64,000 bases of DNA from an uncultured Alphaproteobacteria bacterium (GTDB lineage Bacteria; Pseudomonadota; Alphaproteobacteria; UBA8366; JADFVY01): positions 74,404 to 138,403 of the forward strand of contig CAMYKU010000003.1 of the NCBI GenBank assembly GCA_947259105.1, read 5' to 3'. The notes beneath the pieces are model-generated. The model saw only the letters and a program-made list of their open reading frames with translations. It made no database searches and was not told the DNA's origin. Each line of letters starts with the position of its first letter. The stretch's first letter is position 1. This document shows positions 1-34,769 of this stretch, piece after piece. A program made the position numbers and the translations under genes.

Positions 1-731
1 CCCGTCAGCGTAAGCATGGCAAAGACGATCCGATAGAACCACTTGTCGCTCAGCATACCGTGGAAGCGCAGGCCCAGCCAAACCCCCACCGGGATGGCCG
101 GGGCCAGCGCCAGCGCGGTGCCGAGATTGCCCGGAGAGAGCTGTCCCAACAGCCCGTAGGGGATCAGCTTGGTGTAGTTCACGACCGCGAAGAACACCGC
201 CATGGTGCCGACATAGACCGATTTGTCGAGGCGCTGCGGCAGCAGATACACCTGCACCGGCGGCGACCCGGCATGGGCGACGGTGCTGGTGAAGCCCGAC
301 AGTCCGGCCCACAGCACACCGCGCGGGCCCGGCTGGCTCGGCGCGCGTTCGGCCTGGCGCAGCACGATCTTGCCGGCAAAGCGCCAGGCCACGAAGGCCA
401 GTGCCACGGTGCCGACGATCAGCCGCACGATATCGTCGCTCAGATAATGGAACGACAACCCGCCGACGGTGATTCCCACCAGCGCGCCCGGCAGCATCAG
501 CGCCATGTTGCGTCGGTGCCACGCGCGGCGATAGGCCCACAGCGCGGCGATGTCCAGGACGCACAGGATCGGCAACAGGATGCCGGCCGCCTGCACCGGC
601 GGAATGACCAGTGTCATCATCGGCACCGACACGATGCCGAGCCCCCCGCCGACCCCCGTCTTGGAGATGCCCGAGATCACCACCGCGGGAATCGCGACGG
701 CGTAGAACAGGGGATCGGTGATGAGGTCCAC
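1..731 (-). CDS. TauE/SafE (DUF81) family anion/sulfite exporter, copy 1. Its 3' end runs off the window start; the probable GTG start is at 731.
   Basis: Minus-strand translation gives MDLITDPLFYAVAIPAVVISGISKTGVGGGLGIV...AHAGSPPVQVYLLPQRLDK, which aligns at roughly 55% identity with the TauE/SafE paralog at 9457-10242. The + strand ORF 60-800 in the track is its antisense shadow. Confidence 0.7.
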   Translation of the reverse strand, partial: MDLITDPLFYAVAIPAVVISGISKTGVGGGLGIVSVPMMTLVIPPVQAAGILLPILCVLDIAALWAYRRAWHRRNMALMLPGALVGITVGGLSFHYLSDDIVRLIVGTVALAFVAWRFAGKIVLRQAERAPSQPGPRGVLWAGLSGFTSTVAHAGSPPVQVYLLPQRLDKSVYVGTMAVFFAVVNYTKLIPYGLLGQLSPGNLGTALALAPAIPVGVWLGLRFHGMLSDKWFYRIVFAMLTLT

Positions 732-821: not shown

Positions 822-2144
822 CTAGCCCCGAAATCGGTCCGACAGTTCACCCGTGGCGGTGCAGTAGCCGCCGGGGGTGGGGGCACGGCCCTGCCTGAAA
901 AAGTCGGTGAAAGCATATGTCCCCCAACTCTTGCTCTCGGTTGCATGACTGGAGACGAATCTGAGCATCGGTTCGGATTGTCCGCCCACCGGGCATGTCA
1001 TGCGAATGCAGTATTTCAGGTCGGACGCCGCCTGTTCGTCGGGAAGCCACGCAATCGCCCCGTGTTCGAAGAGGTCCGCGACGCCGGCGGCCATGACGAT
1101 GCTGCATCCATGGGAAAGGACCTGGCCGGGTTCTCCGATCAGGGTGGCCAGGCCCGCTTCCGGCGCGTCGGGCGACCATCCGCCGGCCCGGTTCAGCTCC
1201 GCGGCGATCTCCGCTGCGGTCCGGCCTTGCTCGCGCTGCGTGGCGACCCAGCCATCCACAGCTTCCCGCGTTTCCACGCTGGATATAATCGGCCCCGGTA
1301 AAACCGTCAGTACAAATGAGCCGATAAGCACGCCGGCGATCAACATGGCGACCGTCAGCGGCACCAAAATGGCCCTGCCCGGTGTATCCGGCCCCACCCC
1401 ACCAGCCGCGTCGTCAACATAGGCGCGAACCGCAGTGTCCGTCTCCGTCCGGGTGTAGGCCAGACTTCTGCCTATCGTAAACGCAGTCGCGGAGATCACA
1501 AGCGTCAGTGGCAACATCGGATAGGCCACCGCCAGGTCCCAACTGGTCTCTATTCCGTCCACCTCACGCTCCGCGGCCTGCACGAAAATTAGTGTCAGGG
1601 TCAGGCATGAGAAAAGACTTACCACCCCAAGGTGCATGACAGACATGCTGAAGAAACTTCTGCTGAAACGTTTGGTGCCCTGTTCGCGGATACCCTGAAG
1701 AAACTTTGAGGCCGCGCCGCCATTTCTGCGCGCAAGGCGCGGCGCAAACGCGATAAACAATGCGGACGGAACGGTTATCGCAACGGCCCAGCCAGTAAAT
1801 TTCTGCATCGTATCGCCGGACTGGAGCGGCCACCACGCCCATACGACCAACACCACGACGATAAGCGCCAGATTAATCATGCCAAATGAGAAGGCGTAAA
1901 GAAACAGCAGCCATTCGATTTTTGCTGGCTGCTTCGGGCCACTGTCGTAGAGGCTGGCGAGTGACACCGAGCCAGAATAAACCAGCAGGAGAAACCACGC
2001 TAACAACGGCCCTGCAGCTGGCCCGAATAACATGAAGGCGCCCAACGTGACCGCAAGCACAATCAGGATTTCGTAAAGAATTGAGCGGGGCGGCCGCGAC
2101 GACCATTGCGCCAGCGCCCGGTTTTCGATAATTGCGTTGACCAC
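822..2144 (-). CDS. Uncharacterized polytopic membrane protein, paralog P1 (subtype B) of a five-gene tandem family with a conserved Cys-containing C-terminal domain
   Basis: The 440 aa ORF has multiple hydrophobic helices in its N-terminal two thirds. Its C-terminal region is roughly 150 aa with the family motifs WSPDAPEAGLA, GCSIV..AG, YCIRMTCP and a terminal PGGYCTATGELSDRFRG shared with P2-P5. The KQPAKIEWLLFLY block matches P4. Confidence 0.7.
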   Translation of the reverse strand: MVNAIIENRALAQWSSRPPRSILYEILIVLAVTLGAFMLFGPAAGPLLAWFLLLVYSGSVSLASLYDSGPKQPAKIEWLLFLYAFSFGMINLALIVVVLVVWAWWPLQSGDTMQKFTGWAVAITVPSALFIAFAPRLARRNGGAASKFLQGIREQGTKRFSRSFFSMSVMHLGVVSLFSCLTLTLIFVQAAEREVDGIETSWDLAVAYPMLPLTLVISATAFTIGRSLAYTRTETDTAVRAYVDDAAGGVGPDTPGRAILVPLTVAMLIAGVLIGSFVLTVLPGPIISSVETREAVDGWVATQREQGRTAAEIAAELNRAGGWSPDAPEAGLATLIGEPGQVLSHGCSIVMAAGVADLFEHGAIAWLPDEQAASDLKYCIRMTCPVGGQSEPMLRFVSSHATESKSWGTYAFTDFFRQGRAPTPGGYCTATGELSDRFRG

Positions 2145-2248
2145 GGCTTTCCCCTTTCGGAATCAATCGCCATCAGCCTGCCAGCTATCGGCCAGATCTC
2201 CCTCGGTAGTGCGACAGACGCCGCGGCAAATTCTATCTCGAGAGGTAT

Positions 2249-2267
2249 AATCTGACGTTAACGGCCA
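2249..2267 (-). promoter_or_regulatory. Conserved upstream element copy 1 (GGTATAA-N6-GTTAACGG on the + strand), about 105-120 nt upstream of the P1 start
   Basis: Same motif with identical 6-nt spacing at 5253-5271 and 8122-8140, always upstream of the first gene of a paralog pair or singleton. Confidence 0.5.
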
Positions 2268-2277
2268 TCCATACGGG

Positions 2278-3792
2278 TCAGCCCTGGTACGTGTCGGCCA
2301 ACTCACCCTCGGCGGTGCAATAGCCGCCGGGGGACGCCTCGCGCCCCTCCAATAGCAAGTCGGCGTATGCTCTGAAAATCCAGCGCGGGCGTGCGCTGGG
2401 ATGGCTGGAATACAATGCGACGGTGTCCGGCGCATGCCACGCGAGTACGCCGGGGCAGGTCGCCCTGACGCAATAACGAACCGGCGGTATCGGCGTTGCC
2501 TCGTCGTCTTCCTCTTCGGCCTCCTCGGATTCTGATTCCCGGCGGTCGATCTCCTCGGCGAAGCGCCTGGTGGCGTCATGCACCACATGTGTCAACTGAT
2601 CCGATGTTTCGGGCCAGGGCCGGGCTTCCCGTTCGGCCGTATCGATCGTGCCCGCGGTCACCGTCACGGTGCAGTTCCAACGGGCTGTGCCCTCATCCAG
2701 ATCCTCGACCAGATCCGGCAGAAGTCGGGCCAGCCCTTCGCCCGGCGCGTCCGGCGACCAGCGCCCCAGTTCGTTGATCGTCGCGACGATCTCCGCCTCG
2801 GGCCGCCCCGATTGCTGAAAACCGTCCGCCCAGCGAGCCAGTGCCGTCCCGGAATGAGCGCCCGCGGAAAGTGCGAGGACCGGACCCGTCCTCACAACGA
2901 ACATGAAGTGAATGGTCAAGATCAGGGCGGCAAGCGGCGCAGCAAATCCGATGATCGCCACCGCGAGGCGGACAGGCATGCCGACGGCTTTCGTGACGCC
3001 GTGGCCGGGGCCGCCGTCCGGCGGATCATTGGCGGAAAAGCCGCCGTCGCACTGCGCGATGTGCCGCCATGAAACCACGATGCCGGCGGTCGCCAGCAAT
3101 CCCAGTGGCAGGACCGGGTCGGCCAGGAACAGGTCCCACACCGTCGGTATGCGGTCCCACCAAACCATATCGAGAAAATGATAGAACAGGATGGCCGGCC
3201 CGATCACGATAAGCATCAATACCAACGATTCCATAGCGGTAGCCCCGGAAATCCAGAGCGAGAGGACGCGGGACGCGCCGGACCTGTCGTTCAGGCGAGC
3301 GGGTGCGGCGGCGCGCGTCCGTTCGGCCCATGGCCGGATCGCGAAAGCGAGCCCGAGAAGCAGGGCCGCCAGCGCCAGAAGGATCGCCGTCTTCGACAAC
3401 CAGGGCAGATAATCCGCCGGTCCGAACGGAAACGGGGGGCCGTCCGGATCCCCTTCGAAAATTGCGAACACTCGCTCCCAGTCGTATGCGTGGCGGAGCC
3501 AGGTCAGAAGCGCGGCGATGAGAAGCCCCACGACAGCCAACTGGGCGCTGATCGTGCAAAGAGACTGAAGGATGAACTCCCGGAACGCTATTTTGAGCCG
3601 CTTCCATCGATCGCGGTATCCGATCAATGGCCACAGGGAATAGGTCAGATCTACTGCGACAACCGCGCAGAAAGTGATAAGGAAGCCTGCCGGCCAGACG
3701 ACGGCAAAAGCGGCAGCCATCGCCGCGAACAACAGTGCCGTATGCAGCAGCCAGCGCATCGTTTTTCCGTGCCGTTTGTTCGCTGTCCGCAT
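2278..3792 (-). CDS. Uncharacterized polytopic membrane protein, paralog P2 (subtype B). The start is either 3792 or the internal Met at 3759.
   Basis: The 504 aa ORF has the N-terminal block HTALLFAAMAAAF, which matches HTGLLFAAMAAPF of P4. Its C-terminal domain carries WSPDAPGEGLA, NCTVTVTAG, RYCVRATCPG and a terminal SPGGYCTAEGELADTYQG, with an acidic insert EEAEEEDDE. Confidence 0.7.
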   Translation of the reverse strand: MRTANKRHGKTMRWLLHTALLFAAMAAAFAVVWPAGFLITFCAVVAVDLTYSLWPLIGYRDRWKRLKIAFREFILQSLCTISAQLAVVGLLIAALLTWLRHAYDWERVFAIFEGDPDGPPFPFGPADYLPWLSKTAILLALAALLLGLAFAIRPWAERTRAAAPARLNDRSGASRVLSLWISGATAMESLVLMLIVIGPAILFYHFLDMVWWDRIPTVWDLFLADPVLPLGLLATAGIVVSWRHIAQCDGGFSANDPPDGGPGHGVTKAVGMPVRLAVAIIGFAAPLAALILTIHFMFVVRTGPVLALSAGAHSGTALARWADGFQQSGRPEAEIVATINELGRWSPDAPGEGLARLLPDLVEDLDEGTARWNCTVTVTAGTIDTAEREARPWPETSDQLTHVVHDATRRFAEEIDRRESESEEAEEEDDEATPIPPVRYCVRATCPGVLAWHAPDTVALYSSHPSARPRWIFRAYADLLLEGREASPGGYCTAEGELADTYQG

Positions 3793-3797
3793 GCCGG

Positions 3798-5183
3798 CTA
3801 ACCCTGATATTCCGCCGCCAATTCGCCGTCGGTGGTGCAGTAACCGCCGGCTTCGGGCGCGGCGCCGCTGGCGGACATATCCATGAACACGTTGTAGGCC
3901 CAGCCGCGGTTGCGCGACGGGTGGCTGGAGCTGAAGATCACCACCGAATGCGAATGCGCGGCCACCGGGGACGGGCAGGCCAGCCGGATACAGTAGCTTA
4001 TTTCGGGCAGCGGCCGGAAGGCGGCGACATATCCTTCGATCCAGCTCAAGTCCCGCAGCGCCGAATTGTCGGCGGCGCCGGCGTCGACCGTGACCGTGCA
4101 GCCGCTGCCAAGGCCCAGATACTCGAGGTCCTCGCCGAGTTCCGGCAACAGCGCCGGGAGGCCGGCGCCCGGCTGCGGCGTCGTCCAGTTGCCGTGGTCG
4201 CGCAGGTCAGATGCGATCTCGGCGGGGGGCCGGCCCGCCGCCTGCTGCGCTTCGATCCAGTTGTCGGTGGCGCGGGAGATTTCACCCCAGCCGGCGATCA
4301 TCGAGGCCGCGCCGAACGTCCCGATGACCCAGATATGCACGAAATACAGGTACCATCCGTAAGCTGCGGCGGCGCTCCCCAGCACCGCCAGGACCGCCGG
4401 GATTCTTGCCCCGCGGCGCGGCCGGCGCAAGGACGCCAGCGCCGCGGGCTGCATCCGCCGGAACGCCACCGTCAGGACCGCCGCCGCAAGAATGGCCGCT
4501 GCGAAGCCCGGATACTCGTTGGCCAGGTACCCGATATCGACGATCTGCGCCGGGTTGGTCGACCGCAGCAATTCGGGCAGCGCCGTGCCTGTGGCGGCGA
4601 CGCCAAGAAGGCTCACAAGCGCCAGCCCGAGCAATAGCCAGGCCACGGCCGCGGGCCGGAGGAGTCCGGCGCCCTCTGCGCGGACGCGGCGAACGCAGGC
4701 GCCGACGTCTTCGTCGTCGCGCCGCAGCAGGGCGACGGATGCCAGGAACAGGGCGACCGCCCCGACTGCTGCCCCCAACGCAACCGGCGCCATGGCTGCG
4801 AAGGCCAGGGGGAAACCGGGCTCCGCGCCGCCGGCGGCAACGACTTCCCAGCGATAGGCGAGCGGGAACCAGGCGGCGAAACCGAGAATGGCGAAGGCGC
4901 CGACGATGCTGGTGCCGCCGACGAGCTGGGCCAGCATGAACGGCGCCGCCCGCAGTTTCCGCGGCTGTCCGGGGGCTGTCCGCCGAAACGCCGCGACCAG
5001 CGCCCATGTTACATAGGCGGCGGCCACGCCGAGAGGAACAAGGGCGTAATACGGCCGGGAGACCACCGCAGACAGCGGCGCCGCCAGAATCAGGAACAGG
5101 ACCGCGATTTCCAGCAGGGCCAGCACCAGGGACGATTTCGGGCCGGCCGGCCAAACCAGGGACGGTATCGGATCCTTCGCCAT
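3798..5183 (-). CDS. Uncharacterized polytopic membrane protein, paralog P3 (subtype A)
   Basis: The 461 aa ORF has about 8 hydrophobic segments. Its C-terminal domain carries NWTTPQPGAGLPALLPELGED, GCTVTVDAGAADNSALRD, YCIRLACPSPV, SSHPSRNRGW and AGGYCTTDGELAAEYQG. It is the closest paralog of P5 along its full length. Confidence 0.75.
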   Translation of the reverse strand: MAKDPIPSLVWPAGPKSSLVLALLEIAVLFLILAAPLSAVVSRPYYALVPLGVAAAYVTWALVAAFRRTAPGQPRKLRAAPFMLAQLVGGTSIVGAFAILGFAAWFPLAYRWEVVAAGGAEPGFPLAFAAMAPVALGAAVGAVALFLASVALLRRDDEDVGACVRRVRAEGAGLLRPAAVAWLLLGLALVSLLGVAATGTALPELLRSTNPAQIVDIGYLANEYPGFAAAILAAAVLTVAFRRMQPAALASLRRPRRGARIPAVLAVLGSAAAAYGWYLYFVHIWVIGTFGAASMIAGWGEISRATDNWIEAQQAAGRPPAEIASDLRDHGNWTTPQPGAGLPALLPELGEDLEYLGLGSGCTVTVDAGAADNSALRDLSWIEGYVAAFRPLPEISYCIRLACPSPVAAHSHSVVIFSSSHPSRNRGWAYNVFMDMSASGAAPEAGGYCTTDGELAAEYQG

Positions 5184-5252
5184 CGCATCATTACCTTTTG
5201 GCTGTCACAACCGATACGTACAGCAGGAAATGCGGGCTATCCTAACCGGAAA

Positions 5253-5271
5253 GGCATAACCGTGAGTTAAC
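5253..5271 (-). promoter_or_regulatory. Conserved upstream element copy 2 (GGCATAA-N6-GTTAACCG on the + strand), about 70-90 nt upstream of the P3 start
   Basis: Read directly from the P4/P3 intergenic sequence. The 6-nt spacing is conserved. Confidence 0.5.
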
Positions 5272-5286
5272 CGAGCGGCCCTGGCG

Positions 5287-6651
5287 TCAGCCCTGATATT
5301 CCGCCGCCAGTTCGCCGTTCCTCGTGCAATACCCGCCCGGCGCGGCGGCCACGCCTTCGGCGGAGACGTCAGCGTACCAATATTTCCCCCAGCCTTCGGC
5401 CTGGCTGGAACGGTTTGTGAGGAGCAGCAGAGCCGGCGGGGCGCTCCAGGTGAACGGTGGGGCGCATGCCACTGCAATGCAGGCTCTTAATTCCGGTTCG
5501 ATCTCGCCGGCAACAGACGGGCCGTCTCGATCTTGGGTTGGCGGGTCGATGACCCCGGCGGCGATCCGCACCGTGCAGGAATCGGGAAAGGCCTGCCCGG
5601 GGTCCGCGACCAGCGCCCCCAACCCCGCCCCCGGCGCGTCCGGTGTCCAGTGGCCGAACCGGTTCAGCGCCGCAGCCGTTTCCGCATTGGTCCAATCGTC
5701 GTCCTCGTGCGTATTCTCCAGAATCCGCAGCGCTTCGATCACGCCTTTCAGGGCTTTCCTGCCATCCGCCACGCCTTTCGCCGTGATGCTCAGGTGAAAT
5801 GGATAGATGATGAAGAACAGGGCCGCCACGAGGGCGCCGGCCGTCACCGCGGTCAAGACGGAATTGGCTGTCGCGGCCGGTAGCGGCGCGTCCTTCGCGC
5901 CGTCGATGTAGGCCCGAACGACGGCGTCGTCCCCTTCCCGGCTCGTTTCCAGAATCCTGCTCAGCGACAGAATGGCGGCGGCTGCAAGCAGCGAGAACGG
6001 CAAAAACGGATAGGCCGCAATAAGCTCCCAGATTGTCACGATACCGTCGCCGTCACGCCACCACGCCAGTTCGCGCAAATCCGACGGTACCCAGGCTATG
6101 CTGAGCAGGCAGAAGAGTCCCGCGTTGAAAGCCACGTAGCGCAGCCAGTTATCGTGGAACCATCCGAACCCCTTCGCACGGACCCCCTTGAGGAAACGCG
6201 AGGCGGGCCCGCCGCCTTCTCGCGCCAGCAGCGGGGCGAACAGAAGAAACAGGATGGGCGGGAATATCATCGTGGCTGCGATTGCGATCAATGCAGCCAT
6301 GCCGCCGTCCCAAATGTCGCTGGACCTCGTAAGGGGCCGGTATGCCCACAACGGCCATTCCACGATCAAGGCGAACAGCAGCCCCTGCACGGCAATGGGG
6401 ACGGAGATATCGTACAAAATGAACAGCAGACGGACTTTCGCCGGCTGCTTCGGTTTGCCCCGGTCGCGCAGATAGAGGGTCACCAACCACCACAGCACGT
6501 ACATAGAGCCGATGCCGACCGCCGTCAGCGACGCTGTCGCGATCTTCAGCATGAAAAAAGGCGCCGCCATCGCCGCGAACAGCAGACCGGTGTGCACGAC
6601 GCAGCGTCTTGCGAGCACCGAAACGTTCATCTGCCTGCGTTCTTCGCCCAT
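5287..6651 (-). CDS. Uncharacterized polytopic membrane protein, paralog P4 (subtype B). The track ORF is over-extended to 6870; the likely start is the Met at 6651 or 6630.
   Basis: The family-conserved N-terminus begins MNVSVLARRCVVHTGLLFAAMAAPFF. The upstream 73-80 codons are low-complexity (Pro/Ser/Ala-rich) and would overlap the 3' end of P5. The C-terminal domain carries HWTPDAPGAGLGAL, SCTVRIAAG, ACIAVACAPP and APGGYCTRNGELAAEYQG. Confidence 0.7.
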   Translation of the reverse strand: MGEERRQMNVSVLARRCVVHTGLLFAAMAAPFFMLKIATASLTAVGIGSMYVLWWLVTLYLRDRGKPKQPAKVRLLFILYDISVPIAVQGLLFALIVEWPLWAYRPLTRSSDIWDGGMAALIAIAATMIFPPILFLLFAPLLAREGGGPASRFLKGVRAKGFGWFHDNWLRYVAFNAGLFCLLSIAWVPSDLRELAWWRDGDGIVTIWELIAAYPFLPFSLLAAAAILSLSRILETSREGDDAVVRAYIDGAKDAPLPAATANSVLTAVTAGALVAALFFIIYPFHLSITAKGVADGRKALKGVIEALRILENTHEDDDWTNAETAAALNRFGHWTPDAPGAGLGALVADPGQAFPDSCTVRIAAGVIDPPTQDRDGPSVAGEIEPELRACIAVACAPPFTWSAPPALLLLTNRSSQAEGWGKYWYADVSAEGVAAAPGGYCTRNGELAAEYQG

Positions 6652-6664
6652 ATATCGCCGCCCG

Positions 6665-8053
6665 CTAGCCCTGATACGATTCCGCCAGCCCGCCGGTCTC
6701 GGTGCAATAGCCGCCGGGCTCGAAGGCCCGGCCGTTGCCGAATAAGTCCATGGATAAATGGGTGATCCAATACCGGTTGCGCGAGGGGTGGCTGGACTCG
6801 AGGACCACGACGGAGTGCTCGTGCCAGACAACGGGGGAAGGGCAAGCCATCCGGATGCAATAACCAACATCGGTCAGCGGCCGGATATCGGCTTCGAATT
6901 CACGGATCCAGTCCCGATCCCGGAGTGCCGCACTGTCGACGACGCCGGCATCAATCGTAACGGAACAGCCGCTGGCAAGATTCAATTCCCCCAGGTTCTC
7001 GCCTGGCCCAGGCAGGAACGCGGCGAGGCTGGCGTCGGGTTCGGCCGAAGTCCAGTTGCCATGCGCGCGCAGGTCCGCGGCGATCTCATCAGGGCTTCTG
7101 CCTGCTTCACTCTGCGCCGCGACCCAGTCGGTCGTGGCGCCGGATACAACCTTCCATCCCATAATCATGTCCACCGGTCCGAGCGCCGCAATCATGCCAA
7201 TATGCACGACGTACAGGAACCAGCCTAAGGATATGCCGCTACCGCCAAGGGCCGCCAGCACGGCCGGTGCGCGGCTGCCCGCCACGGGGCGCGTCTCGCG
7301 CAGGCACGCCAGCGCCGCGGGCTGGGCCCGCCGGAACGCCACCAGCAGGACCGCCGACGCAAGGATGGCGACTGGTATGGCCGGGAACTCGCCCGCCACG
7401 AACCACCCGCCGACGTCGCGATACGGGTTCGCCTCCTGCAGCAGGAGCGACAGGGCACCTACGCTGGCATTCACGCCGCCAACGCTGGCAATGGCGAAAC
7501 CGAGCAGCAGCGTCGCCGCCGCGGCCGGCAGTAACGACCGCACCCGGTCCGGCCGGAGCGCGCAATCGTCGCCGCTCTCGCCGTCGCGCCGCAGGAAGAA
7601 GGACGAGGCAAGGAGGAATATCGCGACCGAGACGACAATCAGGGCGAAATCGATGGGCGCCAGGAATGAATGACGGGTGGGGTCGGTGTGACCATACTCG
7701 ACGACGTCGTTAACTTTGCGGCGGTATGCGGCCTGTAGCCAGATGCCAAGAACCAACGAGCCGGCGCCACGAGCAGCCAGCCAGGCGCTGGCAAGCTGGG
7801 CCAGCGAAAACAAACCCGCGCGCAGTTTCGATGGCAGTTCACGCGACGGCCGCCAGTACGCGGCGACCAGCGACCAGATTACGTAGGCAGCGATCAGACC
7901 GACAGGCCCAAGGATCAACAGATCGTTGGAAACGCCCATAAAAAACGGCCCTGCCAACACCAGAAAGACGATCACCGTTTCCAGCAGCGCCCAGCCGTAT
8001 GCGGGGGCCGGGGCGGTCACTGTGCCGGGGCTCTGCGAATGATCGGCTGCCAT
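6665..8053 (-). CDS. Uncharacterized polytopic membrane protein, paralog P5 (subtype A)
   Basis: The 462 aa ORF is collinear with P3. It carries NWTSAEPDASLAAFLPGPGE, GCSVTIDAGVVDSAALRD, YCIRMACPSPVVWHEHSVVVLESSHPSRNRYW and EPGGYCTETGGLAESYQG. Confidence 0.75.
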   Translation of the reverse strand: MAADHSQSPGTVTAPAPAYGWALLETVIVFLVLAGPFFMGVSNDLLILGPVGLIAAYVIWSLVAAYWRPSRELPSKLRAGLFSLAQLASAWLAARGAGSLVLGIWLQAAYRRKVNDVVEYGHTDPTRHSFLAPIDFALIVVSVAIFLLASSFFLRRDGESGDDCALRPDRVRSLLPAAAATLLLGFAIASVGGVNASVGALSLLLQEANPYRDVGGWFVAGEFPAIPVAILASAVLLVAFRRAQPAALACLRETRPVAGSRAPAVLAALGGSGISLGWFLYVVHIGMIAALGPVDMIMGWKVVSGATTDWVAAQSEAGRSPDEIAADLRAHGNWTSAEPDASLAAFLPGPGENLGELNLASGCSVTIDAGVVDSAALRDRDWIREFEADIRPLTDVGYCIRMACPSPVVWHEHSVVVLESSHPSRNRYWITHLSMDLFGNGRAFEPGGYCTETGGLAESYQG

Positions 8054-8262: not shown

Positions 8263-9189
8263 TCACGGCACGATTTCCCTCAGGGCCGGGAGCATTCGCG
8301 CCACCGACCGTCGTCCCTCGGCAATGGATTCGTCCGCCCGGTCGAATTCCATAAGGCCGATCTCGCTCAGCTTGGGCATCAGCATCACATGGGGTGGTTC
8401 GCCCGCCAGGCGGCTGCGCGTGATCTGGTCCTGCATGATATTGATCGCGCCGGCGATCACGTCGAAATATCCTGGTCCGGCCGAACGCTTTCCAAGCAAC
8501 TGGGCGGCGATTGCGTTCACGCCGTTCCTGATCCCCGCGGGAAGGTCGCCGGACAGCTTGGCCAGGAAATCGGTCTCTGGTTCCGGCGCGGCACTCTCGC
8601 GGATGGCCAGCCGTTTCGGGATACCATGGCGTCCGACGATATCGCCGTTGAGATTCACTGCGATGACGATCTCGGCGCCCAGGGCGCGGCAGGCCGACAC
8701 CGGGATCGGATTCACGACCCCGCCGTCGATCAGGCACCATTCACCCTTGCGCACCGGGCTGAATATCCCCGGCAGGGCGATGGATGCGCGTACGGCTTCG
8801 ACCATGGACCCCTCGCGCAGCCAGATCTCACGCCCCGAAACGAGGTCCGTGGCGACGGCGACGAACGGCTTGGGAAGATTCTCGATGGCCGTATCTTCGT
8901 GGCGTTCGCGAAAGAATTTCATCAGCCGGCGGCCTTCGATCAGGCCGCCACTGGTGAGGCTGACGTCCATGAAGCGCACGATATCCCGCCAGTTGATCGA
9001 GCGCGCCCATTTGTCCAGGATTTCCAGTTCCCCGGCGACGTAGGCCGCTCCGACAAGCGCGCCGATGGAGCTGCCACAAACGATGTCAGGCTCGATGCCG
9101 GCCTCGCCAAGCGCCTGAATCACCCCGATATGCGACCATCCGCGCGCGGACCCGCTGCCAAGCGCCAGCCCGATCCGGGGGCGGCTCAC
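8263..9189 (-). CDS. Patatin-like phospholipase (RssA-like). The track ORF extends to 9324, but the likely start is the GTG or TTG near 9189-9192, about 10 codons before the glycine-rich loop.
   Basis: It has the oxyanion-hole motif GSGSARG and the nucleophile motif GSSIG (GxSxG), plus a downstream DGG(V) Asp motif. Its overall length and order match bacterial patatin/RssA proteins. Confidence 0.8.
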   Translation of the reverse strand: MSRPRIGLALGSGSARGWSHIGVIQALGEAGIEPDIVCGSSIGALVGAAYVAGELEILDKWARSINWRDIVRFMDVSLTSGGLIEGRRLMKFFRERHEDTAIENLPKPFVAVATDLVSGREIWLREGSMVEAVRASIALPGIFSPVRKGEWCLIDGGVVNPIPVSACRALGAEIVIAVNLNGDIVGRHGIPKRLAIRESAAPEPETDFLAKLSGDLPAGIRNGVNAIAAQLLGKRSAGPGYFDVIAGAINIMQDQITRSRLAGEPPHVMLMPKLSEIGLMEFDRADESIAEGRRSVARMLPALREIVP

Positions 9190-9456
9190 CAACGCGGGCT
9201 CCGGAACTGCCGCAGGCCGGGGCCGAGGACCGCCGCACCCTCGGAAAGGCCGACGATACCGGCCTCCGCAACCGCGAGGGCACAAAACGGCGGATCGGCG
9301 AAGCCAGGCAAAGGCAAACCCCATTCAACTCGGAACCGGTAACGGCACGCTATACCACAGCGTGCATCGGCGCGACAGCGGATCGGATCAGGCCCTGCCC
9401 GGCAAGTCGGGCTTGAAAGCCGCGCGCGTCGATGCCGTCGACATCGAGGTCTTCGC

Positions 9457-10242
9457 TCATGGGCCTCCGGCCACGAGCCCCTCGACCCCCTGCCAGACCA
9501 GGCGGCAGCCGGTCAGGAAGATCAGCGTGTAGCAGACCCGGTAGAACAGGTCCTCGGGCAGGCGCTGCTGGAAGGTCACGCCGAGCCAGATGCCGACGGG
9601 CGCGACCGGCGCCAGGATCAGCGCGGTGCCGAGGTTGGTCTCGTCCAGCGTGCCCAGCAGCGTATAGGGCACCACTTTCATCACGTCGACCAGCGCGAAC
9701 AGGATCACCGTGGTGCCGATGAAGACGCGTTTGTCCAGGCGCTGCGGCAGCAGGTAGATATGCACCGGCGGGCTGCCGCCATGGGCGACGACGCTGGTGA
9801 ATCCGCCGACCGCCGCCCAGAAGGTTCCGTACCCGCGGTGCGGCGGCGCCCGATGGTCTGCGGCGCGCTTGAGCAGCCGCAGGCCCACCCAGCGGTACAG
9901 CGTGAACAGGATAGCGATGGCGCCGATGAGGATGCGGATCATGTCGTCGTTCATGTAGCGGAAGGTCAGGCCGCCGACGACCACGCCGATCAGCGAGCCC
10001 GGCAGCAGGATCATCAGGTTGCGCCGGTGGAAGATGCCCCAGTAGGCGCGCAGGCTGAACACGTCCATGAACAGCAGCAGCGGCATCAGCACCGCCGCCG
10101 CCTGGACCGGCGGCACGATCAGCGCCATCAGCGGCACCGCCATGATGCCCAGCCCGCCGCCGACCCCGGCCTTGGAAAACCCGACGATCAGGACGGCGGG
10201 CACCGCCAGCGCGTAGAACCACGGATCGCTGATGAATTCCAA
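9457..10242 (-). CDS. TauE/SafE (DUF81) family anion/sulfite exporter, copy 2
   Basis: It reads MEFISDPWFYALAVPAVLIVGFSKAGVGGGLGIMAVPLMALIVPP...AHGGSPPVHIYLLPQRLDK. This is the DUF81 twin-repeat membrane topology, and it is paralogous to the gene at 1-731. The start is TTG at 10242 or GTG at 10251. Confidence 0.75.
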   Translation of the reverse strand: MEFISDPWFYALAVPAVLIVGFSKAGVGGGLGIMAVPLMALIVPPVQAAAVLMPLLLFMDVFSLRAYWGIFHRRNLMILLPGSLIGVVVGGLTFRYMNDDMIRILIGAIAILFTLYRWVGLRLLKRAADHRAPPHRGYGTFWAAVGGFTSVVAHGGSPPVHIYLLPQRLDKRVFIGTTVILFALVDVMKVVPYTLLGTLDETNLGTALILAPVAPVGIWLGVTFQQRLPEDLFYRVCYTLIFLTGCRLVWQGVEGLVAGGP

Positions 10243-10436
10243 GCACTGCACCCTTCGTTGCGGCGGCCCCAATCAACCTGCCGACGCCAGCCGGCGCGGC
10301 GCCGTCGGCGGAGCCAGGCTGCCGTGATTCTTCATTGCGGGGAAACGATTTAACACGGGCCAAGAGAAAGTGATAGCGGATGCCGCCATATCCTGCGGCG
10401 CACCCCTTGACTCTCATCCAATAACGCGCAATTCAT

Positions 10437-11474: not shown

Positions 11475-11645
11475 CCCGGTGCCATCCTGGTGAGAAGCCC
11501 GCTCTAGCCGCGCCGCACTGCATATTCCGATCTCACCCGCCGCCCGGGTCACCGGGATTTGAGCGCTCGTGACGTCCGCCGGGACAGTTCCGTGAACAAT
11601 TCCTGCCACGATCGGAAACAGCACGAACATGAAGGAGCAACTGTC

Positions 11646-12107
11646 ATGCTTGTCCGCCCGTTTCTGGCCACGGCTTTGATCTCCATCGGCCTCTTGTCCC
11701 ATGTCGCCGTTGCGCCGGCGGCCGCCGCGGATCCCGTCTCTACAGGCACGTTCGGCAATCTTGCCGTCAGCGGCTACGACCCGGTCGCCTACTTCGCGCA
11801 AGGCAAGCCGGTCGAGGGACGCAGTGTCCTGGAATACGAATGGAACGACGCCACCTGGCGCTTTTCCAGCGCGGAGAACCTCGCGGCGTTCAAGGCGAGC
11901 CCGGAGGCCTATGCACCGCAGTATGGCGGCTATTGCGCCTGGGCGGTCAGCCAGGGCTACACCGCAAAGAGCGATCCCGATGCCTGGCGCATCGTCGACG
12001 GCAAGCTCTATCTGAACTACAGCAAGGACATCCAGAAGCGCTGGGCGCAGGATATCCCCGGCAATATCGCCAAGGCCGACGCCAACTGGCCCAAGGTTCT
12101 GGAATAG
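11646..12107 (+). CDS. Secreted YHS-like domain protein (GYDPVAYF ... GGYCAW motif family)
   Basis: It has a signal peptide MLVRPFLATALISIGLLSHVAVAPAAAA. The motifs VSGYDPVAYF and YGGYCAWAV are typical of the YHS-domain-like periplasmic protein family. The track ORF start at 11559 is probably over-extended. Confidence 0.55.
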   Translation: MLVRPFLATALISIGLLSHVAVAPAAAADPVSTGTFGNLAVSGYDPVAYFAQGKPVEGRSVLEYEWNDATWRFSSAENLAAFKASPEAYAPQYGGYCAWAVSQGYTAKSDPDAWRIVDGKLYLNYSKDIQKRWAQDIPGNIAKADANWPKVLE

Positions 12108-16998: not shown

Positions 16999-17164
16999 GT
17001 GTGCTCCGGGCTCTTCCGGAGTGTGCGCCGATTCCGCGTCTCACACCGCGGCGCGCGGCCATAGGTGCGGTTCTTTCCGACCGCATGTTGATCCTGATCA
17101 AGGCATGGCGACCGGTTTTCCGGCAGACTGCCGTCGCGTAAGGCTTCCACGATTGGAGGATGCC

Positions 17165-23840: not shown

Positions 23841-24679
23841 CCGGGCAGAATTTCGACATTGACGCACCGCTGATTCTGGCGGTCGCGCCAAACGGGGCGC
23901 GCAAGACCAGGGCCGACCATCCGGCCATGCCCGTCACGGCCGAGGAATGCGCCCGCGCCGCCGCGGCGTGCCGGGAAGCCGGGGCGGCGATGATCCATCT
24001 GCATGTGCGTGACGCCGATGGGACGCACAGTCTGGACGCGGACGCCTACGCCGACGCCATCGCCGCGGTCCGACGCGAGACCGGCGATGCGATGATCATT
24101 CAGATGACGACCGAAGCGGTCGGCATCTACCAGCCGGAGGAGCAGATGGCGGCGGTGCGTGCCGTTCGGCCCGAAGCGGTATCGATGGCGATCCGCGAGT
24201 TATGCCCCGACGACGGATCCCTTGGCGCCTTCGCCGATTTCCTGTCCTGGCTCAAGGGCGAGCATATCAGTCCGCAGTTCATTCTGTACTCGCGGGAGGA
24301 CTGCGAGCGCTTCGCCGATCTGCGTCTGCGTGGTGTGGTGCCTTACGACCATCCCTTCGTCCTCCATGTGCTGGGCCGGTATACGCCAGGCCAGAAATCC
24401 GTCCCCGCCGATCTGCTGCCTGTTCTGCACGCTGACGGGGGCCTGGCGCTCGACTGGGCGATCTGTGCCTTCGGCGCGCGGGAATGCGCCTGCGCCCTGA
24501 CGGCGGCGGCGCTGGGCGGCCATGCGCGGGTCGGCTTCGAGAACAATATTTTTCTGGCGGACGGATCGGTCGCTCCCGATAATGCGGCGCTTGTCGGACA
24601 GATCGCGGATGGAGCAAATCTGTTGGGCCGCGCACTTGCCGACGCCGACCGGGCCCGCGCCCATCTGGGGAGACCATGA
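23837..24679 (+). CDS. 3-keto-5-aminohexanoate cleavage enzyme family protein (BKACE/DUF849)
   Basis: It has the N-terminal LILAVAPNGARKTRADHPAMPVTAEE and a TIM-barrel BKACE pattern with conserved His/Glu positions. It is translationally coupled (ATGA) to the upstream aminotransferase. Confidence 0.7.
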   Translation: MTGQNFDIDAPLILAVAPNGARKTRADHPAMPVTAEECARAAAACREAGAAMIHLHVRDADGTHSLDADAYADAIAAVRRETGDAMIIQMTTEAVGIYQPEEQMAAVRAVRPEAVSMAIRELCPDDGSLGAFADFLSWLKGEHISPQFILYSREDCERFADLRLRGVVPYDHPFVLHVLGRYTPGQKSVPADLLPVLHADGGLALDWAICAFGARECACALTAAALGGHARVGFENNIFLADGSVAPDNAALVGQIADGANLLGRALADADRARAHLGRP

Positions 24680-25722
24680 GCGTACTGCGATCGACCCTCG
24701 TTCCGGCCTTGTTTGCTGCGGCATTGATGGCCGCACCGCAGCCAGCGAAAGCGGACAGCCACGACCCCGCCCAGCCCGAGGAAAGCGGCATGGCCGAGGA
24801 GAGTGGCGCGGCCCCAACCGAGGCGGCGCCCGAACGCGACATCGTAATCGGCGGCGGCAACGTGGCCGGGGTTTATTTCCCTGCTGCGGGCGCAATCTGC
24901 CGCGTGGTTTCTCAGCAGACCCCGGACAGGCGCTGCCTGGTGGAAAGCAATGCAAACTCATCCGCGAACATCGAGCGGCTGACCGGCGGATTGCTGGATT
25001 TCGCAGTGGTTCAGTCGGACTGGCTGATGCACGCGTCAAGGGGAACCAGCCTGTTCCGACCCAACGGACCCGACGAAACGCTGCGCGCCGTGCTGTCGCT
25101 GCATGCCGAGGCGCTCACCCTCGTCGCCCGGGCGGGCGCGCGGATCGAGAAGCCGGAGGATCTGAAGAACAAGCGCCTGAATCTGGGCCCGGCCTATACC
25201 TACCAGCGTGTCCTGACCGATGCGCTGCTTCGGGCGATCGATCTGGATGAGGATGACCTTGCGCAGCTCATGGAGATTTCGACGGCTGAGCAGTTCACCG
25301 CACTGTGCATCGGAGAACTGGATGCCGCAGCGATTGTCGCCGCCCACCCGTCGCCCGTCCTGGCCGACGCGATGCAACGTTGCGATCTGCGGTTGGTTCC
25401 GATAGCCGGCGACGCGGTCGACAAGCTTGTCGAGGACCGCAAGGAACTCGCGGCGGCCATCGTGGCCGGCGGCCTTTATGCCGGCGCGCCCGACGACATC
25501 CCGACCTTCGGTCTGCGGGCGGTCCTCGCGACAACCACCCAGGTCGAAGACGAAATTGTCGCGGCGGTCGTGAAAGCTGTGCTGGATGCGCTGCCGGCAT
25601 TGACCGACCAGCACCCCGCGCTGGCCCGCCTCGACCGCGAGACCATGGCGACCGCCGGCATCGCCCTGCCTCTGCACGCGGGCGCGCAACGCGCCTTCAA
25701 AGCAAGCGGCGTGCTTCCCTGA
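24676..25722 (+). CDS. TAXI-family TRAP transporter solute receptor, copy 1
   Basis: It has a signal peptide and the TAXI hallmarks GGGNVAGVYFPAAGAICR and VVQSDW. The start overlaps the stop of the BKACE gene. Confidence 0.8.
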   Translation: MSVLRSTLVPALFAAALMAAPQPAKADSHDPAQPEESGMAEESGAAPTEAAPERDIVIGGGNVAGVYFPAAGAICRVVSQQTPDRRCLVESNANSSANIERLTGGLLDFAVVQSDWLMHASRGTSLFRPNGPDETLRAVLSLHAEALTLVARAGARIEKPEDLKNKRLNLGPAYTYQRVLTDALLRAIDLDEDDLAQLMEISTAEQFTALCIGELDAAAIVAAHPSPVLADAMQRCDLRLVPIAGDAVDKLVEDRKELAAAIVAGGLYAGAPDDIPTFGLRAVLATTTQVEDEIVAAVVKAVLDALPALTDQHPALARLDRETMATAGIALPLHAGAQRAFKASGVLP

Positions 25723-25908
25723 AAGCCCCTGAAATTACCGGATTCCCGGTTGACGCCGCGCGTTAAGGGCAGGCATAGTCGTGCATATCCTTATGGATAA
25801 GGAACGGACGGCAACGGTGGTGGCCCGGCCGGGTTCGCACCACGGTTTCCGTTGAAGAACAACAGCGCCGGCACACGGCGCAGGTTAAACCAGATACGGG
25901 AGCCTCTC

Positions 25909-26907
25909 ATGAAAATAAAGATATTGATCGCGGCGATATTGATAGCTGCCGCGGTTGTTGTCGTCTGGGCTTTAAGCACAAGGGTCGATAAGGAGCCGTC
26001 AGTTGCACAGGGGCCAGGCAACTTTATCACCATCGGCACCGGCGGTGTGACCGGGGTGTATTATCCCACCGGCGGCGCCATCTGTCGTCTGGTCAACAAG
26101 GGCCGCACTGAACACCGCATCCGCTGCTCGGTGGAGAGCACCGGCGGGTCGGTTTACAACATCAACACGATCAAGGCCGGTGAGCTGGACATGGGCGTGG
26201 CCCAGTCCGACTGGCAATATCATGCCTATCACGGCTCCAGCACGTTCGAGGGGCAGCCGTTCCCGGAACTGCGCGCGGTCTTTTCCGTGCATCCGGAGCC
26301 GGTGACGATCCTTGCGCGCCGCGATTCCGGTGTCACCCACATCGACCAGCTGAAGGGCAAGCGTCTAAATATCGGCAATCCCGGCTCGGGCACACGCGCG
26401 ACCTGGGAGGTGATCGAGGAAGCGCTCGGCTGGAAGCGCAGCGACCTGAAACTGGCCGCCGAACTGAAGTCGGCGGAGACCGGACAGGCGCTGTGCGACA
26501 ACAAGATCGACTCCTATTTCTGGCTGGTCGGACATCCGTCCGGCCTGACCAAGGAATCCGTCTCGTCCTGCGATGCGGTGCTGGTGGACGTCACCGGGCC
26601 GGCGATCGACAAGCTCGTCAAGGACAACCCGTTCTACCGCTATGCGACGATTCCCGGCGGGATGTACAGCGGCAACCCGGAGGACGTGAAGACATTCGGT
26701 GTCGGCGCCACCTTCGTCTCGTCGACGCGGGTTCCGGCGGACGTCGTGTACCAGGTCGTCAAGGCGGTCTTCGAAAATTTCGACGATTTCCAAAAGCTGC
26801 ACCCGGCATTCGCAAATCTGAAGAAGGAAGAGATGATCAGGGACGGGCTTTCCGCCCCGCTGCACGATGGGGCCGCAAAGTATTACAAGGAAGCCGGCCT
26901 GATGTGA
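25909..26907 (+). CDS. TAXI-family TRAP transporter solute receptor, copy 2
   Basis: The start is [18 protein letters not shown]. The motifs [22 protein letters not shown] and [12 protein letters not shown] are present. The track ORF start at 25852 is probably over-extended. Confidence 0.8.
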
Positions 26908-26976
26908 TGCGGCGACCGGGGGAGCGGCACGCTCCGTTCCCCCGCCTCGTTGCACACCATCGATACCGGCTGTCCG

Positions 26977-27972
26977 ATGCCTGGGCCTGCGCGCGCAATA
27001 CAATCCCGAGCAAGATGGACGCGCATCCTGTGCGCGGCCGCGCTGCTGCATGGCGTGTTTGCGGCGACGGCAGCGACCGCGACCGAGGTCGTCATCGGAA
27101 CGGGCAGCGTTCTGGGTGTCTATTTTCAGGTCGGCCGCGGCATCTGCCGTCTCGTGGAGCGGCATACGGAGGGGCTGGAGTGTTCCGCGGTGCCCACGCC
27201 GGGCTCCAGGTTCAATATGGACAGCGTCCAGCTCAATGCCTTTGAAGTCGGGATCGTTCAGTCGGACGTACACTTCAAGGCATACAACAAGTCCGGGGAT
27301 TTTCTGGAATTCGCGGATGTATCCTACGACAATATCCGGTCGGTCTTCTCGGTGCATGGTGAGCCGTTCACCCTGGTAGCGCGGCGCGATTCCGGCATTC
27401 GCTCACTGGCGGACCTGGCCGGGCGCAGGGTCAATCTCGGCAATCCGGGCTCCGGCCAGCGGTCCACCATGGAGGTCGTCATGGACGCGATGGGCTGGAC
27501 ACCCAAGAGTTTTGCCTTTGCCGGCAGCCTGCCCGCGGCGCAGCAATCGCTTGCGCTGTGTCACGGGCGGATCGAGGCGATGGTCTATGTCGTGGGGCAT
27601 CCCAACAAATCGATCCAGAAGGCAACCGATCTCTGCGATGCGGTTCTGGTGAATGTCGAGGGGCCGGAAATCGATCACCTGGTGGCCAGAAATCCATACT
27701 ACTCCTACATGACGATTCCGGGTGGCATTTACAGGGGAAATGAGCAACCGGTCGCTACATTCGGCGTGCGGGCGACAGTGGTCGTCTCCGAGGATCTGGA
27801 TGCCGACACGGTCTATGAGATCACCCGTGCTGTGTTCGAGAATCTCGACCAGTTCAAGAAAATGTACCCCGCCTTCGACGCGCTGGATCCGAAACGCATG
27901 ATCGTGGAAGGCCTTGCGGCACCGCTCCATGAAGGCGCGATCCGGTATTTTTCCGAAAAGGGCTTGATGTGA
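26977..27972 (+). CDS. TAXI-family TRAP transporter solute receptor, copy 3
   Basis: The motifs VIGTGSVLGVYFQVGRGICRLV and VQSDVHFKAY are present. Its C-terminus LHEGAIRYFSEKGLM is paralogous to copy 2, which ends [15 protein letters not shown]. Confidence 0.8.
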   Translation: MPGPARAIQSRARWTRILCAAALLHGVFAATAATATEVVIGTGSVLGVYFQVGRGICRLVERHTEGLECSAVPTPGSRFNMDSVQLNAFEVGIVQSDVHFKAYNKSGDFLEFADVSYDNIRSVFSVHGEPFTLVARRDSGIRSLADLAGRRVNLGNPGSGQRSTMEVVMDAMGWTPKSFAFAGSLPAAQQSLALCHGRIEAMVYVVGHPNKSIQKATDLCDAVLVNVEGPEIDHLVARNPYYSYMTIPGGIYRGNEQPVATFGVRATVVVSEDLDADTVYEITRAVFENLDQFKKMYPAFDALDPKRMIVEGLAAPLHEGAIRYFSEKGLM

Positions 27973-33083: not shown

Positions 33084-33680
33084 TCAGGGCAGTTCAAGAC
33101 TGATGCGGAAGGCCATGCGCTCAACATGCGCCTGCTCGCCCGCGACCAGATTGCCAAGCTCCAGCGCCTCGATCCGCATTGCGCCTTCGATGCGCGGCAC
33201 CAGGGCCAACTGGTTTTCCGCATTCCTGACGTTCTCTTCCGAACGCTCGCCAGGCCAAAGAAGGACTTCCAGCGCCTCCTGCGCCGCCTGGTATCCGGCG
33301 CTGTCCCGTACGAAGGCAAAGCGCCGCTCCATCTGTGGCGCGTTGACATTGCCGTCTCCCGGCTCGTTCGGGCCGGTGTTGTCCCTGTTGCGGAAATGCC
33401 AACCCTGAATGACCGCAGGATTTATACCGCGGAAGGGTGGCGTTACGGCGGTCACGTAATTCTGGTCGCGCTGCATCGGATCGCCGATCCAGATGGTCCA
33501 GCCGCCGCCTGTCGGCACCAGACGAAACTCGTATCCGGCGCCGTCATGATCGAACCGGTGGACCAGCGTATCGCCGCGACTCACCTCGCCCCGCAATTCC
33601 AGCGGGTCCGCCGCGGCGGCGCCGGTGGTGGCGACGCCAAGAGACAGCACCAAGGCGGTTATGAATCCAAATCGGGGCAT
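33084..33680 (-). CDS. Hypothetical secreted protein (198 aa)
   Basis: It has a signal peptide MPRFGFITALVLSLGVATTGAAAA, and the protein-like composition continues to the stop. It is the only coherent part of the over-long track ORF 33084-34724. Confidence 0.4.
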   Translation of the reverse strand: MPRFGFITALVLSLGVATTGAAAADPLELRGEVSRGDTLVHRFDHDGAGYEFRLVPTGGGWTIWIGDPMQRDQNYVTAVTPPFRGINPAVIQGWHFRNRDNTGPNEPGDGNVNAPQMERRFAFVRDSAGYQAAQEALEVLLWPGERSEENVRNAENQLALVPRIEGAMRIEALELGNLVAGEQAHVERMAFRISLELP

Positions 33681-33866
33681 GGCAAGCAGGTGGATGATAT
33701 ATGCAGAACGTAAACAGAGGATATAGCTGTTCGTCGAATCGCCCAACCGCTTCCTTGGTGTCCGACCTGGCCCTCCAGGTTCGATGCGCGGAAGGTACTT
33801 CGAAGCACTTGGCCACATCGCCGAATAGTGGCAGCATACGCATGCGATCGTTAACAGCGGAGAGCG

Positions 33867-34721: not shown

Positions 34722-34769
34722 CATTCAACAAGAGGTGACTGGCATTCCCGGGATCCGGCCGATACAACC

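Follow-up and report, generated by a model that had tools for sequence, protein, structure and literature searches.

A tandem array of polytopic membrane proteins carrying a putative type IV pilin module in uncultured Alphaproteobacteria

Introduction

Five co-directional open reading frames (ORFs) on the minus strand form a tandem array at positions 822-8053 of a 64-kb stretch of DNA from an uncultured alphaproteobacterium (contig CAMYKU010000003.1, assembly GCA_947259105.1; the whole stretch is called the window below). They encode polytopic membrane proteins, P1-P5, with a conserved C-terminal domain that contains four cysteines. What is this domain, and why should a genome keep five such proteins side by side? 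The answer proposed here is that each protein is a poorly conserved six-helix membrane domain followed by a complete, unprocessed type IV pilin module, and that the array is an old lineage-specific expansion, ranging from one to six copies, at one syntenic locus of uncultured Rhodospirillales-like Alphaproteobacteria. For the composite reading, in which the pilin module, its topology, its failure to polymerise and a role in interaction are taken together, we estimate a probability of about 0.5. Type IV pilins are defined by an N-terminal processing signal and by polymerisation, and the argument below turns on how much of this definition the array proteins share.

Results and Discussion

A very rare family of paralogous membrane proteins

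The array consists of P1 (822-2144, 440 aa), P2 (2278-3792, 504 aa), P3 (3798-5183, 461 aa), P4 (5287-6651, 454 aa) and P5 (6665-8053, 462 aa), all on the minus strand, with intergenic gaps from P5 to P1 of 13, 103, 5 and 133 bp. The start of P4 is the ATG at 6651, 13 bp past the P5 stop, in agreement with the NCBI call (P0027); the raw P4 ORF extends to 6870 and overlaps P5. The five proteins align end to end with 32 invariant columns at pairwise identities of 22-48%, which agrees with the five-gene array of polytopic paralogues reported in a preliminary description made from the DNA sequence alone. The four cysteines noted there are invariant in P1-P5 (C362, C398, C403 and C449 in P3) and 98-99% conserved in 89 full-length family members. 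Several of its finer points need correction. The C-terminal end is not absolutely conserved, as P1 ends in SDRFRG and P5 has GGLAESYQG; the YC(I/V)R..CP block holds in general but not in P4 (ACIAVACA); and of two blocks assigned to P1, P2 and P4 together, HTxLLFAAMAA is common to P2 and P4 only, and KQPAK to P1 and P4 only. The SSHPSRNR.W block, described as extra in P3 and P5, aligns without any insertion with SSHPSARPRW in P2, SSHATESKSW in P1 and TNRSSQAEGW in P4.

No match above noise or family threshold was found for P1-P5 in scans of Pfam, NCBIfam, PADLOC and PHROGs (the single PADLOC match, to P2, is insignificant, E 0.087), and sequence searches of the PDB with full-length and head profiles gave no match. 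Word-seeded searches of 5.8e9 clusters returned 26 relatives with P3 and 19 with a P4/P1/P2 profile; these are proteins of ~440-510 aa, unnamed or called 'hypothetical protein', without a precomputed Pfam domain. An exhaustive HMMER search of 1.84e9 representatives with a 43-sequence profile (cut-off E<=1e-3) gave 93 proteins, nearly all of them full-length proteins of the same architecture or fragments. The C-terminal motif GGYCTxxGxL(A/S)xx(Y/F)(Q/R)G-stop, written as a DNA pattern, matches the window exactly five times against 0.00 expected from shuffles; it occurs at 4 loci in 185,579 species genomes and has 8 matches in 241 million metagenome records. The named genomes that bear it are metagenome-assembled genomes (MAGs) of Rhodospirillales or Alphaproteobacteria. 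The family is very rare and narrowly spread, in a few uncultured Alphaproteobacteria, and the preliminary description was right to call it unrecognised, since no curated family in the four collections scanned and no source annotation names the array proteins. Nor did literature searches bring up any account of a polytopic protein with a pilin module at its end.

One contig with two matches to the DNA pattern (L009, CAYFYY010000007.1, 85,429 bp) is labelled 'uncultured Flavobacteriales bacterium', and is probably a mis-binned alphaproteobacterial contig.

The C-terminal domain is homologous to a pilin head

Of the 93 profile matches, P0130 alone could be recognised as differently built. This prepilin of 205 aa starts MFKPIQRSARGFTLVELM... 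and matches the family profile with E 1.5e-4; its sequence, which begins MFKPIQRSARGFTLVELMVVIAIIGILAAI, is matched to profile positions 267-464. It carries Pfam N_methyl (E 2e-9), and the hhalign probability of the family against P0130 is 95.3% (E 2.3e-8). P0130 is one of a family of >1,600 pilins, which are 185-205 aa long, bear the annotations prepilin-type, PilA or PilE, and have a head domain without a Pfam model. In an alignment of 30 of these pilins GFTLVELM, VVYCI, VLYSS.AS...GW and, a few residues before the C-terminus, AGGYC(S/T)A.G are invariant or nearly so. Aligned to these 30 pilins, the family head without its transmembrane (TM) helix is strongly supported as homologous (97.2% probability, E 3.8e-11, 135 columns), as is the full-length family profile (97.1%). 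The motifs of the two groups correspond in order and run to the C-terminus in both: YCIR with YCIT, SSHPSR..W with SS.AS...W, and GGYCT..G with GGYCS..G. A hidden Markov model (HMM) of the family head detects 62 of 120 pilins at E<1e-3, and an HMM of the pilin head matches only the family ORFs among the 556 ORFs of the window.

The related pilins are genuine, since they are encoded by the first gene of a locus with T2SSE and T2SSF genes and their profile matches solved type IVa pilins. Their loci (L022, 10001-18338; L024, 4533-12869; L019, 231-2806) are unusual for a type IV filament system, and have the gene order pilin, PilZ-like, kinase-FGE-sulfatase, T2SSE, T2SSF, EAL/FHA, where the kinase is a Ser/Thr kinase fused to an FGE-sulfatase domain.

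Compared with these AGGYC-tail pilins (P0130, P0132-P0250; 185-205 aa with a PF07963 leader), the array proteins have a homologous head, in which (Y/F)CI, (Y/S)SS.(A/P)S...W, D/N...G and GGYC(T/S)A.G near the C-terminus are found in both, two aligned cysteines correspond to the D-region pair, and a long alpha1 leads from the membrane into the head in the same orientation. The pilins begin with a short leader and GFTLVELM with nothing upstream, whereas in the array proteins ~260 residues with six TM helices stand upstream and Gly-1, Phe+1 and Glu+5 are missing. In addition, the alpha-beta region of the array proteins is longer, their end reads (Y/F)(Q/R)G, and a second pair of cysteines is present (C362 and C403). 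The pilins head filament loci, in contrast to the array, which has no filament machinery genes nearby.

From these comparisons the C-terminal part is very probably a type IV pilin module, composed of an alpha1-like seventh TM helix (TM7) and the head. The conserved blocks of the preliminary description are largely the structural signature of a pilin head, which argues against a catalytic or metal site at S420/H421 or at the cysteines. The novelty that was claimed for the domain is therefore half lost, as it has characterised relatives in the type IV pilins, but these have a head without a Pfam model.

Several observations weigh against the composite reading. The only match between the family HMM and a differently built sequence in the library of 1.84e9 representatives is marginal. 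The pilin-head HMM does not detect P4 on its own and detects P5 weakly. A Foldseek search of the PDB with the head found nothing at E<=0.001 (best E 0.86), and structural similarity is modest. Genes for T2SSE, T2SSF, prepilin peptidase or N_methyl pilins were found neither in the 64-kb window nor in the related loci of ~20 kb, and most related genomes have a single copy of the family gene. The Foldseek result, together with the empty PDB and Pfam sequence searches with the head, would suit an explanation in which the likeness to pilins arose by convergence or is spurious, and in which the C-terminal domain forms a new fold family of its own. This is very unlikely, as three independent lines agree: the HMM-to-sequence match, the profile-profile comparison (97%, with collinear motifs to the C-terminus) and the fold ranking. 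Moreover, the membrane topology is that of a prepilin, and the control comparison with TauE by hhalign reached only 0.2%.

Predicted fold and topology

Structure prediction with AlphaFold2 was carried out on P3 with the 43-sequence alignment, and on its head (residues 288-461) alone. The full-length model has a mean predicted local distance difference test (pLDDT) score of 85.7 and a predicted template modelling (pTM) score of 0.83, and the head alone has 88.8 and 0.87, respectively. In the model, six TM helices are followed by one continuous helix of 52 residues (264-315) and then by an alpha/beta domain with a four-strand sheet, which puts the predicted number of membrane helices, given as six to eight in the preliminary description, at seven. 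The first ~23 residues of helix 264-315 are hydrophobic and the helix then leads into the head. Two pilin traits are thus present in the P3 prediction, namely an alpha1 helix of ~50 residues with its N-terminal half in the membrane and its C-terminal half on the head, and a head of the alpha/beta-roll type whose antiparallel sheet has about four strands. A third, that the module starts the protein, is absent, as the alpha1-like helix comes only after ~260 residues that form six TM helices.

Across the 89 members, loops 2, 4 and 6 contain a mean of 3.5, 4.9 and 3.3 Lys+Arg residues, against 0.2, 1.2 and 1.3 in loops 1, 3 and 5, and the head has a mean of 12 Lys+Arg vs 23 Asp+Glu. By the positive-inside rule, this charge pattern predicts with good confidence a cytoplasmic N-terminus and a periplasmic head, and so offers a periplasmic answer to the earlier question of the side on which the cysteine domain lies. 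When the hhalign register is extended backward without gaps, pilin position +1 falls near residue 260 of P3, loop 6, which is cytoplasmic and rich in Lys/Arg, falls at the position of the prepilin leader, and TM7 at that of the N-terminal half of alpha1. The orientation derived in this way, which is that of a prepilin, matches the independently derived positive-inside result.

The head is better conserved than the membrane part (mean identity 36-40% vs 22%). Near-invariant positions are G331, W333, C362, C398, C403, S420, H421, W428, G446, G447, C449, G453 and the final G461. In P3 the module comprises residues 264-461 (3801-4394, minus strand), that is, TM7 with its periplasmic extension and the alpha/beta head, with Cys362, 398, 403 and 449. 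The corresponding minus-strand modules are residues 259-440 of P1 (825-1370; Cys347, 379, 384 and 428), aligned to P3 and matched by the pilin-head HMM; 274-504 of P2 (2281-2973; Cys374, 441, 446 and 492), also matched; 265-454 of P4 (5290-5859; Cys359, 391, 396 and 442), not matched alone; and 265-462 of P5 (6668-7261; Cys363, 399, 404 and 450), matched weakly. The P4 head is the most degenerate, and is without the Tyr of YC and the His of SH. Paralogues of the P2 type (P2 at ~390-435, L006_g5, L007_g4 and P0043) carry a very acidic insert of ~40-60 aa, about 40 in P2, with the sequence …ESESEEAEEEDDEAT…. It separates strand beta1 of the head from beta2, and no other part of the head varies as much.

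As candidates for the origin of the six-helix domain, the flanking TauE/SafE (TSUP, PF01925) permeases were considered. These are likewise polytopic inner-membrane proteins encoded by conserved flanking genes, but there is no sequence relation to the membrane domain of the array proteins, and a derivation from them is ruled out (hhalign 0.2% against eight flanking TauE proteins, no PF01925 match).

Processing motif and cysteines

The N_methyl domain (PF07963) has no match in P1-P5, even at E<=1, and in the 89-member alignment the equivalents of G-1, F+1 and E+5 are A/T/G, R and V/A/L. Glu+5 is needed for the registration of pilin subunits. Because Gly-1, Phe+1 and Glu+5 are missing and N_methyl is not matched, neither cleavage by prepilin peptidase nor canonical filament registration would be expected from the sequence, and we lean towards a module that does not polymerise. 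The head falls within the type IV pilin superfamily, but the array proteins are not classed as pilins, since two defining pilin features, the processing motif and the N-terminal position, were both looked for and both found to be missing.

The related pilins have only two invariant cysteines, the D-region pair; C398 and C449 align with these, and would probably form the counterpart of the D-region disulfide. C362 and C403 are specific to the family; in the model they are found where strand beta1 begins and where the antiparallel strand beta2 ends, and may form a cross-strand staple between the two. The proteins contain no CXXC or other redox motif, and the membrane thiol-disulfide oxidoreductases (DsbB, DsbD/CcdA and VKOR), which have a CXXC or equivalent redox pair and conserved cysteines within or beside TM helices, were rejected as relatives.

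A fixed pilin module or part of a filament machine?

Four to six deeply diverged paralogues with an alpha1-plus-head plan are encoded in tandem in the case of the minor pilins of type IVa pili (FimU-PilVWXE) and the pseudopilins of type II secretion (GspG-K). Such sets are reported to form hetero-oligomeric complexes with a priming role in assembly (PMC5979040). The array proteins might likewise serve a filament machine, either of type IV or a pseudopilus, whose genes are in another part of the genome. Being unable to leave the membrane, the module would be a basal, anchoring or terminating subunit, or a primer or decoy docking beneath a growing fibre, and the paralogues would be comparable with the four or five minor pilins of a set. 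Such a role would suit the kinship of the head with true major pilins whose genes adjoin those for T2SSE and T2SSF, the geometry of TM7 plus head, which in the model is that of a membrane-resident pilin, and the fact that tandem diverged pilin paralogues are the usual arrangement for assembly-priming minor pilins (PMC5979040). It is nevertheless rather unlikely, given the missing machinery genes noted above, the missing Glu+5, and single-copy genomes as the commonest state among the related loci. Minor pilins and pseudopilins are bitopic, cleaved by the peptidase and placed at the filament tip, whereas the array proteins are polytopic and lack the residues for cleavage and assembly, and the copy number of the array varies from one to six between related genomes.

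The reading preferred here, a pilin module fixed in the membrane, would work as follows. TM7 would enter the membrane from the Lys/Arg-rich cytoplasmic loop, which stands in the place of the prepilin leader, and would occupy the position of alpha1. Its helix would run on for ~30 residues into the periplasm and bear the acidic alpha/beta head. With Gly(-1), Phe(+1) and Glu(+5) missing and the N-terminus tied to six TM helices, the module would neither be cleaved by the peptidase nor enter a filament. The head, permanently tethered to the membrane, could then make protein-protein or ligand contacts at the periplasmic face, and the diverged paralogues could provide different partners or specificities, or could pack through their alpha1-like helices as minor pilins and pseudopilins do. 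A role of the head in periplasmic interactions is the likeliest function, but a tentative suggestion. It is similarly doubtful, if attractive, that these are the first permanent pilin modules in polytopic membrane proteins, working without prepilin peptidase or filament, with the five or six ancient paralogues packed via their alpha1-like helices into a hetero-oligomeric 'pilus stub' or receptor platform, embedded in the membrane and facing the periplasm. Such a platform would be a new use of the pilin fold, independent of the filament machinery. Since most relatives have a single copy, a hetero-oligomer cannot be obligatory.

Pilins that act from within the membrane offer analogies. In Pseudomonas, the PilS kinase has a six-TM domain to which PilA binds, in a proposed geometry (PMC6058289), and in Caulobacter unassembled PilA is reported to signal to the cell cycle from within the inner membrane (PMC7196804). 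The PilS-PilA pair resembles the array proteins in that a pilin alpha1 lies in the inner membrane against a six-helix domain, but an array protein would combine both in one polypeptide and has no kinase or other cytoplasmic output domain. These membrane-resident PilA examples bear on the array proteins as analogies.

Should the proposal hold, the pilin module could be exapted as a fixed periplasmic domain, which would widen the definition of the superfamily. The comparison provides seeds for two family models, one of the six-helix N-terminal domain and one of the 'AGGYC' pilin head, and the latter would annotate >1,600 pilins that now carry only N_methyl.

Relationships among the paralogues

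Relationships were assessed from an identity matrix and a neighbour-joining tree of 94 members. P3 and P5, which are 48% identical, group with every single-copy orthologue in clade A; P3 represents the lineage found alone in single-copy genomes and P5 is a second clade-A paralogue. P4 and P1 form a second clade, in which P1 is divergent and has a long branch beside the P4 type, with no close orthologue found (best relative <=30% identity); it is the representative of its own 50% cluster (P0048). P2 is in a different major clade, together with its orthologues L006_g5 (75%) and L007_g4 (73%). P1, P2 and P4 are only 24-30% identical to each other. Of the two subtypes in the preliminary description, A is therefore a real clade, and B, in which P2 had been placed with P4 and P1, is not.

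The six-gene array of locus L006 contains orthologues of P3 (75%), P2 (75%) and P4 (L006_g6, 53%), but in a different order. Thus, the array is made up of ancient paralogue lineages rather than being a recent amplification, judging from the sequences, because P3, P2 and P4 have separate orthologues in L006 and the order has changed. A recent duplication of an ancestral A-B pair, as previously suggested, is ruled out by the identity matrix and tree. What survives of the pairing is the arrangement, in that a clade-A gene is followed by a non-A gene at a gap of 5-24 bp wherever there is more than one copy (window, L006, L007 and L015). With one to six copies at a fixed locus, the array lends itself to the study of how ancient paralogues are retained.

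The composition of the array (63-68% GC) is the same as that of the window, and gives no sign of horizontal transfer, which was rejected.

A conserved locus between TauE genes

In the window, the gene order is TauE (<1-731), P1-P5, patatin, TauE, Crp/FixK-like regulator, YHS-domain, GNAT, gamma-glutamyltranspeptidase, metallophosphoesterase and amidase. The downstream TauE/SafE (TSUP) permease gene (1-731, minus strand; PF01925, E 2e-35) is cut by the window edge, and the upstream one is at 9457-10272 (minus strand; PF01925, E 2e-36); both are conserved neighbours. Related MAGs and metagenome contigs have the same gene order, but differ in how many family genes stand between the TauE genes: L001-L004 have one, L007, L013 and L014 have three and L006 has six, while L015 has two followed by TauE. 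Downstream in the related loci are TauE, TauE, a D-cysteine-desulfhydrase/CuyA-like PALP gene (359.7 bits, under the cut-off of 450) and a PPOX-type flavoprotein gene.

In the three-copy loci the middle copy is split into overlapping ORFs of 198 and 317 aa (L007, 8498-9995; L013 and L014, 11395-12892). The split gene (GCA_012974945, GCA_012974985) is the result of a frameshift, and is a pseudogene or an assembly error.

This setting raises the possibility that the array proteins assist the flanking TauE/TSUP anion permeases, as accessories, sensors or redox partners, in organosulfur metabolism such as the export of sulfite after desulfonation. Sulfite or another exported anion would then be sensed by the Cys-rich periplasmic head or would react with it. 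TauE genes stand on both sides of the single gene or array in the window and in L001-L004, L006, L007, L013, L014, L015 and probably L012, and the same loci carry the CuyA-like PALP gene downstream (L015 and L012 end too early to show it). In single-copy loci the successive gaps to TauE-TauE-PALP are 88, 15 and -8 bp, consistent with a single operon, and the CuyA gene is known to neighbour a putative sulfite exporter gene (PMC11193023). However, the whole region of gamma-glutamyltranspeptidase, GNAT, YHS, Crp and GntR genes is syntenic in the relatives, so that the adjacency is perhaps plain inheritance, and the distant family members L008 and L016 are found in unrelated contexts without TauE. 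The TauE association is limited to one syntenic clade, and may reflect inheritance rather than function. The lack of a redox motif, the occurrence of the conserved cysteines and motifs in ordinary pilins, where they are structural, and the unrelated TM domain also stand against a partnership with TauE, which is a fairly improbable explanation.

The patatin gene (8263-9324, minus strand) is located between the upstream TauE gene and P5, 209 bp upstream of P5 and on the same strand. Tandem immunity arrays beside lipase effectors exist in other systems, and on this model the array proteins would be immunity or sensing proteins tied to the neighbouring phospholipase, as the preliminary description had supposed. 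The model is extremely unlikely. The patatin protein is RssA-like and of the housekeeping type (266.7 bits, under the cut-off of 272), PADLOC has no significant match for P1-P5, and no secretion-system genes are found nearby. The gene is a neighbour in this genome only, and is not at the orthologous position in L001-L007, L013 and L014, which have one, three or six copies of the family gene. The phospholipase or immunity link is left without support, because the patatin is RssA-like and is missing from every orthologous locus examined; the association is accidental and the patatin is no part of the system. Of the two co-occurrences proposed for checking, that with TauE thus holds within the syntenic clade and that with patatin does not.

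Sizeable intergenic space upstream of the array is limited to the 209-bp gap between patatin and P5 (8054-8262), which contains no sigma-70-like or FNR-box match. Promoter and terminator scans gave results at chance level only, and no RNA genes were found in the window. An FNR/FixK box upstream of the array was considered and rejected; the sole window match is at 17088, and one match is the chance expectation.

Other features of the window

The YHS-domain gene (11559-12107, plus strand) adjoins the Crp/FixK-like regulator gene, and its orthologue in L001 (8227-8679) matches the NCBIfam model 'YHS domain-containing (seleno)protein' with 172.6 bits against a cut-off of 70. Two long ORFs on the minus strand, at 33084-34724 (546 aa) and 54317-55765 (482 aa), have no Pfam match. 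A second, unrelated tandem set in the window is formed by three paralogues of the NMT1_3 (TAXI-type solute-binding) family on the plus strand (24676-25722, 25852-26907 and 26950-27972), followed by an 866-aa fused DctM+DUF3394 permease (28016-30616, plus strand).

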